Positions 5,579-10,560 are shown, numbered from the stretch's first letter. The stretch is 64,000 nucleotides of DNA from an uncultured Spirochaetota bacterium (GCA_963781885.1 CAWAHW010000002.1:64001-128000), one strand, 5' to 3'. A program made the numbers and translations. Notes: generated by a model not told the origin, from the sequence alone.

Positions 5579-6241
5579 ATGAAAGAACAGTCTGGCCGTG
5601 ACTCCCTATCCGACAATCGTCTTCCCGCATTCACCCGGGCGCTCCTGGAAGTGGACCGCGTGGCATCCCAGCGGATCCTCCTGGAGTCCGATCCGTCGGG
5701 CGGTCCGATGGAGCGCATCGAGCGGCTGATCGTTCCCGCGCTCGTCAGCATCGGCAACGGCTGGGACGACGGGAGCGTTTCTCTTTCCCAGGTCTACATG
5801 GCGGGTCGGTTGTGCGAAACGCTGGTCGACGCGATCCTGCCGGCTGCCGATCCGCAGCGGCGCCGCAATCCAATCATGGCGATTGCCGTGCTCGAAGACT
5901 ACCACATGCTCGGCCTGCGCATCGTCTACGCGGCCCTGCGCGCTTCGGGCTTTGAGCTTGCCAACTACGGTCGGCTCAGCGTGGATGAGGTGACGGCGCG
6001 CGTGAAGGCTGACGGCGTCGCTTTCCTGCTGCTGTCGGTCCTGATGCTTCCCTCCGCTCTGCAGATCAAAGAGGTGACGGCGCGCCTTCGCGCCGAAAGC
6101 CCGGCGACGAAGGTCATCGTCGGCGGTGCGCCTTTCCGTTTCGACCCGAACCTCGCCGCCGAGGTCGGAGCCGACGCCGTGGGCGATTCCGCCGGAGAGG
6201 CCGTGGCCATCGTGCGCCGCTTCATGGAAGTCCGGCCGTGA
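5579..6241 (+). CDS. Cobalamin (B12)-binding corrinoid protein
   Basis: Cap-domain motif (LIVPALVSIGNGW...SQVYM) and His-on motif DxHxxG (EDYHMLG), SxL (LSVLM), VGG. Confidence 0.88.
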   Translation: MKEQSGRDSLSDNRLPAFTRALLEVDRVASQRILLESDPSGGPMERIERLIVPALVSIGNGWDDGSVSLSQVYMAGRLCETLVDAILPAADPQRRRNPIMAIAVLEDYHMLGLRIVYAALRASGFELANYGRLSVDEVTARVKADGVAFLLLSVLMLPSALQIKEVTARLRAESPATKVIVGGAPFRFDPNLAAEVGADAVGDSAGEAVAIVRRFMEVRP

Positions 6242-7295
6242 GCGCCGTCATGACGTCTGCCGAGCGCGTTCAAACGGCGCTCGCACACAAGGAGCCCGAC
6301 CGTGTGCCGTTCCTGCTTCCCGCCATCCTGCGGGGTGCACGGGAGATGGGTCTCTCCATCCAGGACTACTTTTCGGACGCGGAAGCCGTTGCGGAAGGCC
6401 AGATACCGGCTTCAGCAGAAGCTCGGACATGACGGGCTTTTCGGATTCTTTTATTCCAGCCAGGAGCACGAAGCATTCGGTGGGGAAACGGTATTTCGCG
6501 CCGATGGTCCGCCGAATGCCGCCGGGCCGGTGATCTCGACGCCGGCGGACATCGATAGGATGGAGCCGCCGCGCATCGATGACTCCCCGACCCTCCGGCG
6601 CGTGCTGCGCGTCATCGCGCTGCTGCGGGCGCATGCCGGGCAATGACGTCCCGGTCCTCGGCGTCGCGATCTCGCCGTTTTCACTTCCCGTGATGCAGAT
6701 GGGCTTCGAGTCCTATCTCGTGCTCATGCACGAGGACCCGGTGCGATTCGAGCGCCTTGTCCGCGTCAACGAGGAGTTCACCGTCGCGTGGGCGAATGCG
6801 CAGATCGCAGCCGGGGCGAGCGCCATCTCATTCGCCGATCCCGTCTCGTCTCCCACGATCGTTCCGCGGTCGCTGTACCTGCGCACGGGATGGGCGATCG
6901 CGTCGCGGACGCTCGCCCGCATCGGCGCCCCGTGCGCGACCAGCTTCGCGTCGGGGCGGATCCTGCCGATCGTGGAGGACATCGCGCGGACCTGCACGGT
7001 CGCCGTCGGGGCGAGCGCGATGGAGGACCTGGCGGCGACCAAGGACCTCTGCCGCGGACGCCTGGCGGTGATGGGGAATCTCAACGCAATCGAGATGCGG
7101 TGCTGGACACCCGCGGTCGCGGAAAAGAAGGTCAAGGAAGCCATTTCCAAGGCAGGACCCGGCGGCGGCTTCGTGCTGACCGACAATCACGGCGAGATCC
7201 CGTGGCAGGTGCCCGACGAGGTCCTTGTCGCCATCGCCGATGCGGTGCGCCGTTGGGGCTCCTATCCCCTGGCGTGGGTTTCCGACGATGCCTGA
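6238..7295 (+). CDS. Uroporphyrinogen-decarboxylase/MtaA-CmuA-fold protein (two frameshifts)
   Basis: N-terminal MTSAERV...[33 protein letters not shown] motifs spread over ORFs 6238-6432, 6302-6646 and 6579-7295. Confidence 0.82.
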
Positions 7296-10200
7296 CGGTC
7301 TCACGCTCCGGGTCTGCCGCCATTGCACGCATGAAGCGCGGGCCGCCCTGCGCGAAGACGGGATCGATGACGTCGCCATTTCTGCATGCTCCGGTGAGTG
7401 CATTTCCCGGAAGAACGGGCACGAGGACGGGCCCGATACCGCCGAGGTGGGAATATGCCAGGCGCTGCCCCCGCACGACGTGGGGGAGGGGCCCGCCGCA
7501 GTCCGGGATTTCGGCATCGGGCATTTCCTCTCTTTCATTGCGCCTCCGCCTTTGATCAGCGCACAAATCGCCCGGGGCGCCTATGTCGTGACCCCCGGGT
7601 GGCTGGATGACTGGCGCCGCCGCCTCGAGGAATGGGGTTTCGACCAGACGACAGCCCGGGACTTTTTTCACGAATTCAGCCGCGCCATCATCCTGTTCGA
7701 TACCTTCATGATGCCGGAAGCGGGCGCACGTCTTCGTGAGATGGGAAAATATCTTGCCCTGCCGACAGAAACCGTTCCCGTGGGCATCGATCATTTCCGG
7801 CTCGCCATGCGATCCCTGATTCAGGATTGGCGGCTTCGCAAGGCCATCGCCGCATCCGTCGATGCCGGCCAGCGCAGCGCGCAGAAGCTTTCCGCTCATG
7901 CCATGGCAATGGACATGACGAGCAGGCTGACCCGGATGATGAGCGAGGACGACACAGTCACGGCAATCAAGGAGTCGTGCGCGATGCTTTTTGGAGCGCG
8001 TGCCGTGCATTTCGAGAAAAACGGCGGCGAGCCGGATGCCCGCTTACCGGTCGCGCTCGATCCGGGTGTTGACCATCGGGAGACCGCGGCGGGTTTTGTC
8101 CTGCGTGTTGCCCACCTCGGCGAGACGCTGGGGTTCCTGGTCGTCGACGAGGTTGCGCTGCCCCAGCATCGGGCCGCCTATCTCAATCTGGCTCTTGACC
8201 TCGTTGCCGTCTGCGGCCTGGCAATCCACAACGCGCGGTCCGTCGCGAAGATCCGGGAAACCGAGCAGGCACTGCAGGCGGCGAAGCTGGCGGCCGAGGC
8301 GGCGAATGCATCGAAGAGCATGTTCCTCGCGAACATGAGCCACGAGATCCGCACTCCCATGAACGCCGTCATCGGATTGTCGGACCTCGCGCTGAAGACC
8401 GACCTCACCCCGCGGCAGAGGGACTACGTCGGAAAGATCCACAACTCCGGCATCTCGCTGCTCGGGGTCATCAACGACATCCTCGACTACTCGAAGATCG
8501 AGGCGGGTCGTCTTTCGATCGAGCATGTGGATTTCACCCTGGATGAGTTGATGGACAACCTGATCGCGATCACCAACCACGGCGTCAATGCGAAAGATCT
8601 GGAGCTCATCCTCGACGTGGCCCCCGACGTGCCGCAGAACCTCGTGGGCGATCCCCACCGTCTCGCGCAGATCTTCACGAACCTCGTGAGCAATGCGACG
8701 AAGTTCAGCGAGAGCGGGAACGTGGAGGTGAAGGTCGCCTGTCTCCAGCGGACGGGGGAAAAGGTGAAGCTGTGCTTCGGCGTGCGGGACAGCGGCATCG
8801 GCATGACGGAGGAGCAGGCCGCGCGGCTGTTCACGCCCTTCACGCAGGCGGACGCCTCGACGACGCGGAAGTACGGTGGGACCGGCCTGGGGCTCAGCAT
8901 CTGCAAGAGGCTCGTGGAGATGATGAGCGGTCAGATCTGGGTGGAGAGCGCCCCGGGAAGAGGGAGCACGTTCACCTTCACCGCCTGGCTCGACCTCGGC
9001 GCGGGGAAGGGACAACGGGAGCATGTCCTCCCGTCGACACTCGCCGGCCTTCGGGTGCTGGTGGTGGACGACAACCCCGTGGCGCGCGAGATCATGCAGA
9101 GCACGCTTGTGTCCCTGCGTTTCCGCGTCGAGATCGCCCGCTCGGGCGAGGAGGCCGTGGACGCCGTCGAGCGCGCGGACGGTGACGATGCCTTCGCCCT
9201 GGTGCTCATGGATTGGAAGATGCCCGGCATTGACGGCATCGAGGCCACCGCGCGGGTTCTCGGCGATGGGCGCCTGCGGCACGTGCCCGTTGTCTTCCTG
9301 CTCAGCGCGTCCGGCGGAGGAGAGGGGGAGCGCGAAAGGGCCCTGGCGGTCGGGGCCGCGGATTTTCTGGCGAAACCCATCACGGGGTCGACCCTGTTCG
9401 ACGCGATTGTGAGGACATTCGCGCCCAGTCTCGTGCCCGCGCGGACGGGCCCGTCATCGGATCCCGCGGAGATCCAGGACATGAAGGGCGCGCGCGTGCT
9501 GCTCGCGGAGGACAACGGGATCAACCAGCAGATCGCGACGGAGCTCCTCGAACGCGCGGGGATGGAGGTGGTCACGGCGGACAATGGCCTCGCCGCGCTG
9601 GAAGCCATGGCACGGGAGGGTGACCGCATCCACCTCGTCCTGATGGATATCCAGATGCCGGTGATGGATGGTTACGAAGCGACACGTCGGCTGCGCGCGC
9701 AGGCGCGGTTCGCCCGGTTGCCCATCATCGCCATGACGGCTCACGCGCTGGAAGAGGAAAGGCAGAAGGCCCTTGAAGCGGGAATGAACGACCATATCAG
9801 CAAGCCCATCGACCCGAAGGCCATGTTCGAAACGATCCGTCGCTTCCTTCGCACAGCGGATATCCCCACGACGCGCGTGCGCATCGCGCCGCCGCGCGTC
9901 GACGAGGCGGCATTTCCGGCGATCCGCGGCGTGGACGTCACGACCGCGCTCACGCGGCTGGCCGGCAACCACCGACTCTACCGCGGCTTGCTGAAGGAGT
10001 TCGTCGAAAAGCAGGCAGGCTGCGCGCGGGACATCGGGGAGGCCCTCCTCCGGGGCGACGTGAAGCATGCCGAGATCCGCGCGCATACCATGAACGGGAT
10101 CGCGGGCAACCTCGGCGTGGACGCCGTGCATGCCGCCGCCGCGGAGCTGGAAAGGCTGCTCCGTGAAAAGGAATCGCCGCAGGTGATCGAAGCGGGACGT

Positions 10201-10560
10201 GTCCAACTGGAGACGATCCTTCGCGAGGCGCTGGACTCGATCCGCGCGGCGCTCGCTGAGACGGAACGACTCCCCCCGCGCGCCGATTCCGGACCTTCCC
10301 TCGAGGACCCGGACGCCGCGCTCTCCGTCCTGGTGCGTATGATCCAGGAAAGCGACAGCGAGGCGTTGGAGGTATTCGAATCGCAGCATGCATTCTGGGT
10401 GAAAACAGCGGGCCCCGAGGAAACGAAGACGGTCGCCGACCTGCTGCGGGGATACGATTTTCCCGCGGCACTCTTGCACGCGCAGGGGCTTCAGCGGCGC
10501 CTTCGCGCATTGGGGAGACCGGTCGTGGGCGCCGCCGAGAGGGACAAGGAAAATGGGTGA
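7288..10560 (+). CDS. Soluble hybrid histidine kinase: Cys-rich/DUF1638-like N-terminus, HisKA, HATPase, two REC domains, HPt
   Basis: ATG at 7288 overlaps the upstream stop; [14 protein letters not shown]1638-like motif; [20 protein letters not shown]; two receivers; [12 protein letters not shown]t. Confidence 0.88.

Follow-up and report, generated by a model that had tools for sequence, protein, structure and literature searches.

A candidate corrinoid-protein-based sensory cassette with exchangeable signalling outputs in an uncultured Spirochaetota bacterium

Introduction

Methylotrophic methanogens pair a corrinoid protein with a URO-D-family methylcobamide methyltransferase (MtaC/MtaA-type systems), and the known signalling roles of cobalamin are those of a ligand for riboswitches and of a light-sensitive chromophore. 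To our knowledge, no chemical or redox sensor is known that is built from methyl-transfer enzymes and has cobalamin as its working part. Here we analyze three adjacent genes at positions 5579 to 10560 of a 64,000-nucleotide (nt) stretch of DNA from an uncultured Spirochaetota bacterium (GCA_963781885.1, CAWAHW010000002.1:64001-128000; the whole stretch is hereafter called the window), which encode a corrinoid (B12-binding) protein, a protein of the URO-D/MtaA fold and a soluble hybrid histidine kinase with a DUF1638-like N-terminus. As judged from its sequence, this locus is on balance probably a member of a widespread corrinoid-protein-based sensory cassette.

In Phaeobacter inhibens, methionine rescues DUF1638 mutants, which also show cofitness with the split MetH genes, and the domain co-occurs with a RamA-like activase; the authors give no mechanism (PMC5764234). 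In Ruegeria pomeroyi, SPO2162 rises on methylated osmolytes (PMC12478193). DUF1638 is thus genetically tied to keeping a B12 enzyme active (PMC5764234; PMC12478193). In Geobacter, the putative corrinoid enzyme and methyltransferase GSU2386/2387 were not detected in a proteome (PMC7894505). Literature searches on corrinoid, MtaA, B12-binding or URO-D together with kinase or GGDEF, and on PF07796 (DUF1638), found no description of the cassette.

Results

Conservation of the three-gene unit

The cassette in the window comprises the following genes:

5579 to 6241, + strand: corrinoid (B12-binding) protein of 220 amino acids (aa) (PF02310, 2.7e-16; PF02607, 1.8e-6)
6238 to 7295, + strand: URO-D/MtaA-fold gene (PF01208, 1.3e-26 and 1.5e-6 on two fragments)
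7288 to 10560, + strand: soluble hybrid histidine kinase, the sensor (Pfam domain set)

The B12 gene and the URO-D gene overlap by GTGA at 6238-6241, and the URO-D gene and the kinase gene overlap by ATGCCTGA at 7288-7295. The three overlapping, coupled genes of the preliminary description are thus borne out at both junctions, but the middle gene is not one open reading frame (ORF), as two +1 shifts interrupt it.

Using residues 1-330 of the sensor as seed, a word-indexed protein search returned 8 homologs beyond the window's own, and a profile of the homologs run over one genome per species yielded 45 loci. Their labels span 14 phyla (Spirochaetota, Myxococcota, Verrucomicrobiota, Chloroflexota, Pseudomonadota, Thermodesulfobacteriota, Actinomycetota, Acidobacteriota, Bacteroidota, Synergistota, Hydrogenedentes, Bacillota, Nitrospirota and Nitrospinota). 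By tblastn, a B12 homolog is located directly 5' in 44 of these 45 sensor-seeded loci, locus L037 being cut inside the URO-D gene, and a URO-D homolog lies between the B12 gene and the sensor in 43 of them (none in L029 and L030). After all-vs-all clustering of 3176 ORFs from 46 sources, only the three families occurred in more than 14 sources, antisense shadows aside. Among the same 46 sources, no RamA-like activase, substrate-specific methyltransferase (MT1), second methyltransferase, folate or coenzyme M (CoM) enzyme, or transporter was conserved beside the trio.

Because this first survey was seeded by the sensor, a reverse survey was run from the URO-D clade of the trio, whose profile found at least 575 relatives on metagenome contigs, the best 80 of which were kept. 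A sensor homolog starts between -60 and +500 nt 3' of the URO-D gene in all 65 metagenome loci with enough sequence, and a B12 gene lies just 5' of it in 71 of 72. The tight spacing is likewise widespread: the B12 stop and the URO-D start share a 4-nt overlap in 30 of 39 loci, and the URO-D stop overlaps the picked sensor start in 32 of 45 loci and is within 18 nt of it in 12 more.

A profile search of 1.84 billion representatives sized the family at 2100 clusters (50% identity) at an expectation value (E) ≤ 1e-3 and at 1057 clusters at E ≤ 1e-30. In all of the top 150 database representatives, whose lengths range from 359 to 1403 aa, the input module is N-terminal. According to their record titles, carriers are mostly anaerobe-type lineages or groundwater and sediment bins (Geobacter/Geomonas, Desulfobacterota, Syntrophaceae, Holophagaceae, Synergistaceae). 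They include the cultured Geomonas species (L026, L027, L033, L035 and L048) and Rubrivivax sp. A210 (L025), as well as the phototroph-related Candidatus Viridilinea and Rubrivivax. The cassette is sporadic in the window's own lineage: it was found in one of 20 other genomes of the genus, the Spirochaetota bin of locus L004, and the full module was present in 4 of 401 sampled genomes of the phylum, the window's own included.

Exchange of outputs and optional presence of DUF1638

The sensor kinase of the window can be divided into the following parts:

7288 to 7788, + strand: divergent DUF1638 domain, sensor residues 1-167 (PF07796, alignment A3, AlphaFold2 model)
7789 to 8295, + strand: linker helix (residues 168-216), divergent GAF-like domain (~220-290) and helix into the kinase (AlphaFold2 structure, Foldseek)
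8314 to 8985, + strand: HisKA (residues 343-407) and HATPase_c (454-566) (Pfam, 1e-19 and 6.2e-32)
9031 to 10248, + strand: receivers (residues 582-704 and 737-850) and Hpt (901-987) (Response_reg, 2.2e-50 on two stretches; Receiver_CRE1, 7.8e-4; Hpt, 3e-9)

The output differs between loci. Across the 45 genome loci, the third gene carries HATPase_c in 25 cases (9 with receivers), GGDEF in 6 and neither in 14; ten of the last group end in a Cys/His motif, LLPICxxCKKIRDDxGxW...FSHGxCPxC. This module, which matches no Pfam family even at E ≤ 1, is the sole 'output' after the GAF-like domain in L029, L030, L032, L036-L038, L040, L041, L044 and L046, and is also found in L084, L085, L106, L107, L114 and L120. 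For 65 of the top 150 database representatives the counts were HATPase_c 49, GGDEF 6 and STAS 1, and the 47 complete third genes of the metagenome loci include 25 with HATPase_c, 9 with GGDEF and 2 with SpoIIE. The preliminary description had called for a neighbourhood survey of interchangeable outputs; the trio indeed recurs with histidine kinase, GGDEF, SpoIIE, STAS and Cys/His forms, but no methyl-accepting chemotaxis protein (MCP), which had also been named, was seen among the surveyed third genes. In a quick maximum-likelihood tree of the input module, which departs from taxonomy, outputs are intermixed: the 6 GGDEF rows imply 5 changes, and a single clade with 100% support in the Shimodaira-Hasegawa-like approximate likelihood ratio test (SH-aLRT) holds both histidine kinase and GGDEF forms. 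Taken together, these results define a trio that is translationally coupled, linked in both search directions, equipped with swappable outputs and devoid of a conserved metabolic partner.

DUF1638 is a frequent but optional part of the cassette. The region is present in 35 of the 47 complete third genes of the URO-D-seeded loci, missing in 11 and unclear in one. In these 11 genes, only 20-35 residues precede the 'ADYAMALDLL' helix of the GAF-like domain, and no DUF1638 was found anywhere in their loci. Since DUF1638 is optional and the GAF-like domain nearly constant, the latter represents the most constant partner of the B12/URO-D pair. For the same reason, the earlier proposal that DUF1638 is the domain reading the cobalamin is not established, the domain being in addition degenerate in the window. 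In one locus, L089, the GAF-like domain of the sensor is interrupted, its first part ending near 3926 and the rest resuming ~2.6 kb on at 6520, which may reflect an inserted element.

The corrinoid protein

The product of 5579..6241 scores above the curated Pfam cut-offs for both B12-binding (59.9 bits; cut-off 32.1) and B12-binding_2 (28.5 bits; cut-off 23), and combines a four-helix cap with a Rossmann-type B12 domain. Its EDYHMLG segment reads D107-x-H109-x-x-G112, i.e. the DxHxxG signature that we take to mark a His-on ligand, as anticipated by the preliminary description. Across 43 aligned cassette B12 proteins, D107, H109, G112, S153, G182 and G183 are invariant, so that DxHxxG, SxL and GG are kept without exception. 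The nearest solved chains are 7xcn_M, 4jgi_A and 3ezx_A (E 7e-12 to 2e-11), corrinoid proteins of methyltransferases named MttC, Dhaf4611 and MtmC. A chain titled 'GGDEF domain-containing protein' (8j2y_A; title only) matches at 1.3e-9, and the CarH chains 5c8a and 5c8d match marginally (E 2.5e-3 to 6.6e-3). Pfam detects no output domain fused to the B12 protein itself.

The URO-D-like protein

Pfam URO-D matches the window fragments at 93.8 and 27.9 bits (cut-off 23.9) over profile positions 60-346, which agrees with the UroD/MtaA fold assigned earlier, but the His/Cys/Cys zinc site of MtaA is not kept. The intact ortholog in L004 is about equidistant from HemE (3cyv, 3.5e-11) and MtaA (4ay7, 5.2e-10). 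When this ortholog is aligned to 4ay7 by HMMER, 'lhicg' pairs with 'sfasg' and 'pgcgi' with 'dnhge', so that the positions of the MtaA ligands His-x-Cys...Cys, which we take to bind the zinc that activates the thiol acceptor, read F/S...H in L004. The clade consensus at these sites is 'ASG' and 'DNHGEIP', and the window has 'SFASG' and 'DNHGEIP'. At the presumed catalytic Asp of the HemE 'SD' motif there is a Tyr, with 'lfsdil' of 3cyv pairing with 'gffyss' of the L004 ortholog, and the window carries 'GFFYSS'. By these residues, the protein appears to be neither an MtaA-type thiol methyltransferase nor a decarboxylase.

In the assembly the gene occupies three frames (~6238-6405, 6404-6640 and 6642-7295). 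By tblastn these are collinear with residues 15-77, 63-159 and 155-372 of the comparison with the intact 352-aa L004 ortholog at 60-73% identity. This corresponds to two +1 shifts, each a single extra base, near 6402-6409 and 6636-6641. Both fall at CCGG (6406 and 6636), of which the gene holds ten sites. Together the fragments span the ortholog with no residue lost, and third-position GC content stays coding-type in all three (0.75-0.86). Short-read contigs of 151 letters from run X1 are identical to 6230-6380 and 6639-6784, none of them covering shift 1. At shift 2, the last 5 letters of the contig at 6639-6784 are unaligned exactly at the GGG run 6638-6640, the pattern expected from a read with one G fewer. 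A second run, X2 (share 0.05), gave only short, diverged matches that are uninformative about this organism. Of 43 loci with the gene, 39 carry the URO-D ortholog as one uninterrupted ORF, and split or truncated copies occur in L019, L045 and L022, all from long-read-style bins. IleS, ValS and LeuS lie in long open frames, so errors are not everywhere in this assembly. On this evidence, the frameshifts are somewhat more probably assembly errors than real. Recoding or programmed frameshifting was ruled out, since the breaks are changes of frame rather than in-frame stops and most orthologs (39 of 43 loci) are undivided.

Other genes of the window are broken as well. A cNMP-binding/GGDEF gene at 37199-38150 aligns in two frames to a neighbouring paralog, an EamA transporter (35486-36468) is split over two overlapping ORFs, and aat (Leu/Phe-tRNA protein transferase; 33853-34221) is a fragment covering profile positions 77-171 only.

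The input region of the sensor

HisKA, HATPase_c, the receivers and Hpt all score above Pfam cut-offs, and no membrane-span-type hydrophobic segment was found in the kinase (highest 19-residue Kyte-Doolittle mean 1.66), in keeping with its earlier description as soluble. The input is less clear-cut. PF07796 matches the window kinase at 24.6 bits by hmmscan (gathering score 27), at profile positions 78-158 of 161 only, and at 27.7 bits in a six-frame search; 44 of 45 homologous sensors match it at E ≤ 1e-4, the best of them at 53 bits. The motif 'YVVTPGWL' occupies sensor residues 99-106. Four conserved Cys, a criterion for sensor-type DUF1638 that was defined in this analysis and not by Pfam, are each at least 90% conserved in 44 sensor-seeded sequences, and in the independently (URO-D-)seeded set they are present in 34, 35, 29 and 32 of 35. 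The Cys-rich, DUF1638-like input of the preliminary description therefore stands in part: C10, C38 and C57 are kept in the window, but the fourth Cys is replaced by F80 and the match is borderline. The closest database relatives of the window sensor, P0004 and P0005, are without the first DUF1638 lobe.

An AlphaFold2 model of sensor residues 1-337, built with 44 homologs at a predicted local distance difference test (pLDDT) score of 87.8, has an alpha/beta domain (1-167), a long helix (168-216), a small alpha/beta domain (~220-290) and a helix toward the kinase. Pfam GAF has no match in the kinase; Foldseek pairs the second domain with the GAF structures 4y2f, 3cit and 3e98 at probabilities of 0.99-1.00 and template modelling (TM) scores on the target of 0.52-0.63. 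For 4y2f and 3cit, the whole-query E is 4.7e-3 to 2.6e-2 and TM on the target 0.59-0.63. The whole input arrangement resembles the REC-GAF kinase 6oap, and as a lead only, its Protein Atlas neighbours are GAF clusters (score 0.88).

A complete DUF1638 domain, modelled from L042 (pLDDT 93.9), has the four Cys following strands 1-4. Foldseek found no match to it at E ≤ 1e-3. Among 48161 chains compared by VIA-align, receiver domains scored highest (Z 7.6), and the PrpR N-terminal domain reached Z 7.1 over 152 residues; these matches probably reflect only a generic two-lobed alpha/beta arrangement.

Overall, the cassette combines a corrinoid protein of the His-on type, a URO-D-fold protein that lacks the MtaA zinc site and a cytoplasmic signalling protein whose input is made of an optional DUF1638 domain, a long helix and a GAF-like domain.

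Genomic context of the cassette

On the + strand from 41 to ~21368, nearly all genes encode two-component parts according to Pfam searches of the window ORFs, and no MT1, activator or folate enzyme is among them. In this respect the preliminary description, which saw an operon otherwise given over to signalling, was accurate. Immediately upstream lies the following gene:

5171 to 5545, + strand: single-domain response regulator, 33 nt 5' of the cassette (Pfam Response_reg, 8.7e-10)

The response regulator is probably in the same operon as the cassette; all-vs-all ORF clustering over the 46 sources found no counterpart kept at other loci. Overlaps continue 3' of the kinase, at 10553-10560 and 11815-11818. 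The region 10553-15078 encodes a solute-binding protein with a signal-peptide-like start and a membrane-anchored PAS hybrid kinase, translationally coupled to the cassette kinase. The solute-binding protein (10553-11818) was ruled out as a member of the cassette, as none of 125 loci had a match at 1e-8.

No Rfam family reached its gathering score anywhere in the window, which thus holds no cobalamin riboswitch by this measure. A second B12/URO-D pair is located at 41719-43433 (B12-binding protein 41719-42351, URO-D-family protein 42372-43433), adjoined by a divergent PocR-AraC regulator on the minus strand (40278-41876). The cassette B12 and URO-D proteins are only 20% identical to this second, ordinary pair. 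Elsewhere, on the minus strand at 29475-30929, a single protein combines phosphotransferase system (PTS) EIIA-2, a DacZ_P sensor domain and a diadenylate cyclase (DAC).

The window's own genome (4.6 Mb) holds 19 URO-D-family and 8 B12-binding matches, numbers suggestive of a lineage with many genes for corrinoid methyl transfer. The genome's sole RamA-like (RACo_C_ter) match, at C3:105424-106167, contains one in-frame TAG that could be a sequencing error, the mark of a pseudogene or a recoded codon. A second DUF1638 of this genome is a stand-alone protein of 263 aa scoring 115.5 bits (C7:539185-539976; L003 9185-9976, minus strand); it adjoins homoserine O-succinyltransferase (metA) and a major facilitator superfamily (MFS) transporter, not a B12 gene.

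Discussion

The recurrence of the trio, the swapping of its outputs and the absence of a conserved MT1, activator or folate enzyme beside it support the original idea that methyl-transfer parts have been repurposed as a sensor. In the model we favour, the corrinoid protein and the URO-D-like protein would together form the perception unit. In answer to a small molecule or a redox condition, the URO-D-like protein would add an alkyl (methyl) group to the protein-bound cobalamin or remove a group from it. The resulting corrinoid state (methyl-Co(III), Co(I) or Co(II)) may then be relayed by protein contact to the helix/GAF-like input, which would switch the output, in the window a hybrid histidine kinase with two receivers and Hpt. 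Where present, DUF1638 would more likely dock on the corrinoid protein and keep it serviceable than act as the sole reader. The candidate signals are methyl donors, methyl acceptors and compounds that oxidise cob(I)alamin. The window copy itself may drive a hybrid-kinase phosphorelay, in impaired form if its frameshifts are real.

Several observations weigh against this model. The sensor-seeded set was chosen by the motif G[AG][YHF][LV]VTPGW, and the invariance of 'TPGW' in alignment A3 is consequently circular, because the motif was the scan pattern; in the independent, URO-D-seeded set the motif varies. The reverse survey covered the best 80 of at least 575 URO-D relatives, and more distant members may reside in other contexts. 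DUF1638 is absent from 11 of 47 third genes; conversely, loci L045 and L100 lack a GAF-like domain and have DUF1638 by itself as their third gene. The three-part make-up is thus not compulsory, and the cassette may have had a metabolic ancestor or may serve a metabolic use. With the MtaA zinc ligands gone, methyl-transfer activity is itself only putative; no activase is linked to the cassette, and the genome's sole RamA-like gene has the in-frame TAG. In the window, the URO-D-like gene is broken twice within 1058 nt, the fourth Cys of DUF1638 has become F80 and the first lobe of this domain is degenerate (residues 57-66 with pLDDT <50). With the URO-D-like gene broken and DUF1638 eroded, the window copy may be inactive.

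This last point bears on the possibility that the window cassette is a decaying remnant with real frameshifts and an eroding DUF1638, an explanation which concerns the window only, is compatible with any family-level explanation and, though a serious one, falls short of an even chance. Two frameshifts in one gene of 1058 nt, while IleS, ValS and LeuS are long and open, would be accounted for in this way, as would the lost Cys, the disordered first lobe, the nearest relatives P0004 and P0005 without that lobe and the presence of the cassette in only one of 20 other genomes of the genus. Decay is harder to reconcile with fragments that cover the ortholog without loss, at an even identity and with coding-type third positions, or with shifts that are both single extra bases at CCGG, the second of which coincides with the X1 contig left unaligned as a one-G-fewer read would be. 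Nor are breaks confined to the cassette, as other window genes (37199-38150, EamA and aat) are frame-broken and split copies are found in other long-read-style bins.

At the level of the family, the B12 and URO-D genes might instead encode an unusual methyltransferase pair, with the third gene sensing substrate or product through its GAF-like domain and regulating genes elsewhere, co-transcription then reflecting shared regulation. Precedent is provided by the mec cassette, in which the PocR-type kinase MecA stands beside corrinoid methyltransferase genes (PMC9768040), and the window's second B12/URO-D pair with its adjoining PocR-AraC regulator, the 19 URO-D matches of the genome and the DUF1638-only third genes of L045 and L100 point in the same direction. 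We nevertheless consider this explanation unlikely, given that the 46 sources show no conserved second methyltransferase, MT1, folate/CoM enzyme, transporter or activase next to the trio, that gene order and 4-nt overlaps are fixed across 14 phyla with linkage in both directions, that the MtaA zinc site is missing, and that outputs such as cyclic diguanylate (c-di-GMP) synthesis and PP2C/STAS partner-switching do not act on pathway transcription. Very unlikely, in our view, is a light sensor in which light would cleave the Co-C bond of the B12 protein, as it does in CarH, while the dark state would be restored by the URO-D-like protein together with DUF1638 and reported by the GAF-like domain. 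Capped B12-binding domains do serve signalling, as the matches to CarH (5c8a, 5c8d) and to 8j2y_A recall, and Candidatus Viridilinea and Rubrivivax are phototroph-related; however, the CarH matches are far weaker than those to methyltransferase corrinoid proteins, most carriers are anaerobe-type lineages or groundwater and sediment bins, and a photoreceptor needs no URO-D-fold partner.

A more specific form of the sensory-cassette model, a chemical 'bait' sensor exploiting the cob(I)alamin supernucleophile, is unlikely. In this form, environmental electrophiles or oxidants, for instance methyl halides or other donors of methyl groups, nitrous oxide or oxygen, would alkylate or oxidise the protein-bound corrinoid directly. 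Catalysis or resetting of this reaction would fall to the zinc-less URO-D-like protein, the four-Cys site of DUF1638 would help bring the cobalt back to its reactive state, and the GAF-like domain would inform kinases, c-di-GMP cyclases, PP2C phosphatases and other outputs of the cobalt state. If true, this would be the first case in which a pair of corrinoid methyl-transfer enzymes has become a general input for signalling.

Should the sensory-cassette model hold, the cassette would represent a new class of cytoplasmic input device, feeding phosphorelays, c-di-GMP synthesis and partner-switching in at least about 1000 sequence clusters from 14 phyla, among them many anaerobes of sediments, soils and groundwater, and both DUF1638 and the distinct GAF-like domain would gain a function. 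It would also account for a set of 'orphan' corrinoid/MtaA-like genes with a current metabolic annotation, such as those regarded in Geobacter as putative parts of the acetyl-CoA pathway (PMC7894505). As cultured Geomonas and Rubrivivax sp. A210 carry the cassette, the model is directly testable.

Among described systems, the cassette resembles the MtaC/MtaA-type pairs (MtbC/MtbA, MtsB/MtsA and the bacterial O-demethylase CP/MT) in its adjacent genes, its capped His-on corrinoid protein and its URO-D-fold partner. Unlike in those pairs, the MtaA His-x-Cys...Cys is replaced, no MT1, second methyltransferase or activase is linked, and a signalling protein always follows. With the stand-alone DUF1638 proteins PGA1_c13340 of P. 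inhibens and SPO2162 of R. pomeroyi it shares a DUF1638 encoded beside a B12-binding protein; in contrast to these, the DUF1638 of the cassette is optional, is fused to a helix-GAF-like-output protein and has no linked RamA-like gene, and its matches are weak (24.6-53 bits, compared with 115.5 bits for the stand-alone copy of the genome).

The mec (dichloromethane) cassette likewise combines corrinoid protein and MtaA-family genes with a two-component system; however, the kinase MecA senses through its own PocR domain, with no DUF1638/GAF-like input, and the cassette holds several methyltransferases, including methyltransferase II (MTII), and a transporter (PMC9768040). Finally, CarH and the B12-domain-GGDEF chain 8j2y also use a capped cobalamin-binding domain in signalling rather than catalysis. 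Whereas the B12 domain of CarH and 8j2y is fused to its output and needs no enzyme partner, the B12 protein of the cassette is a separate protein accompanied by a URO-D-fold partner.

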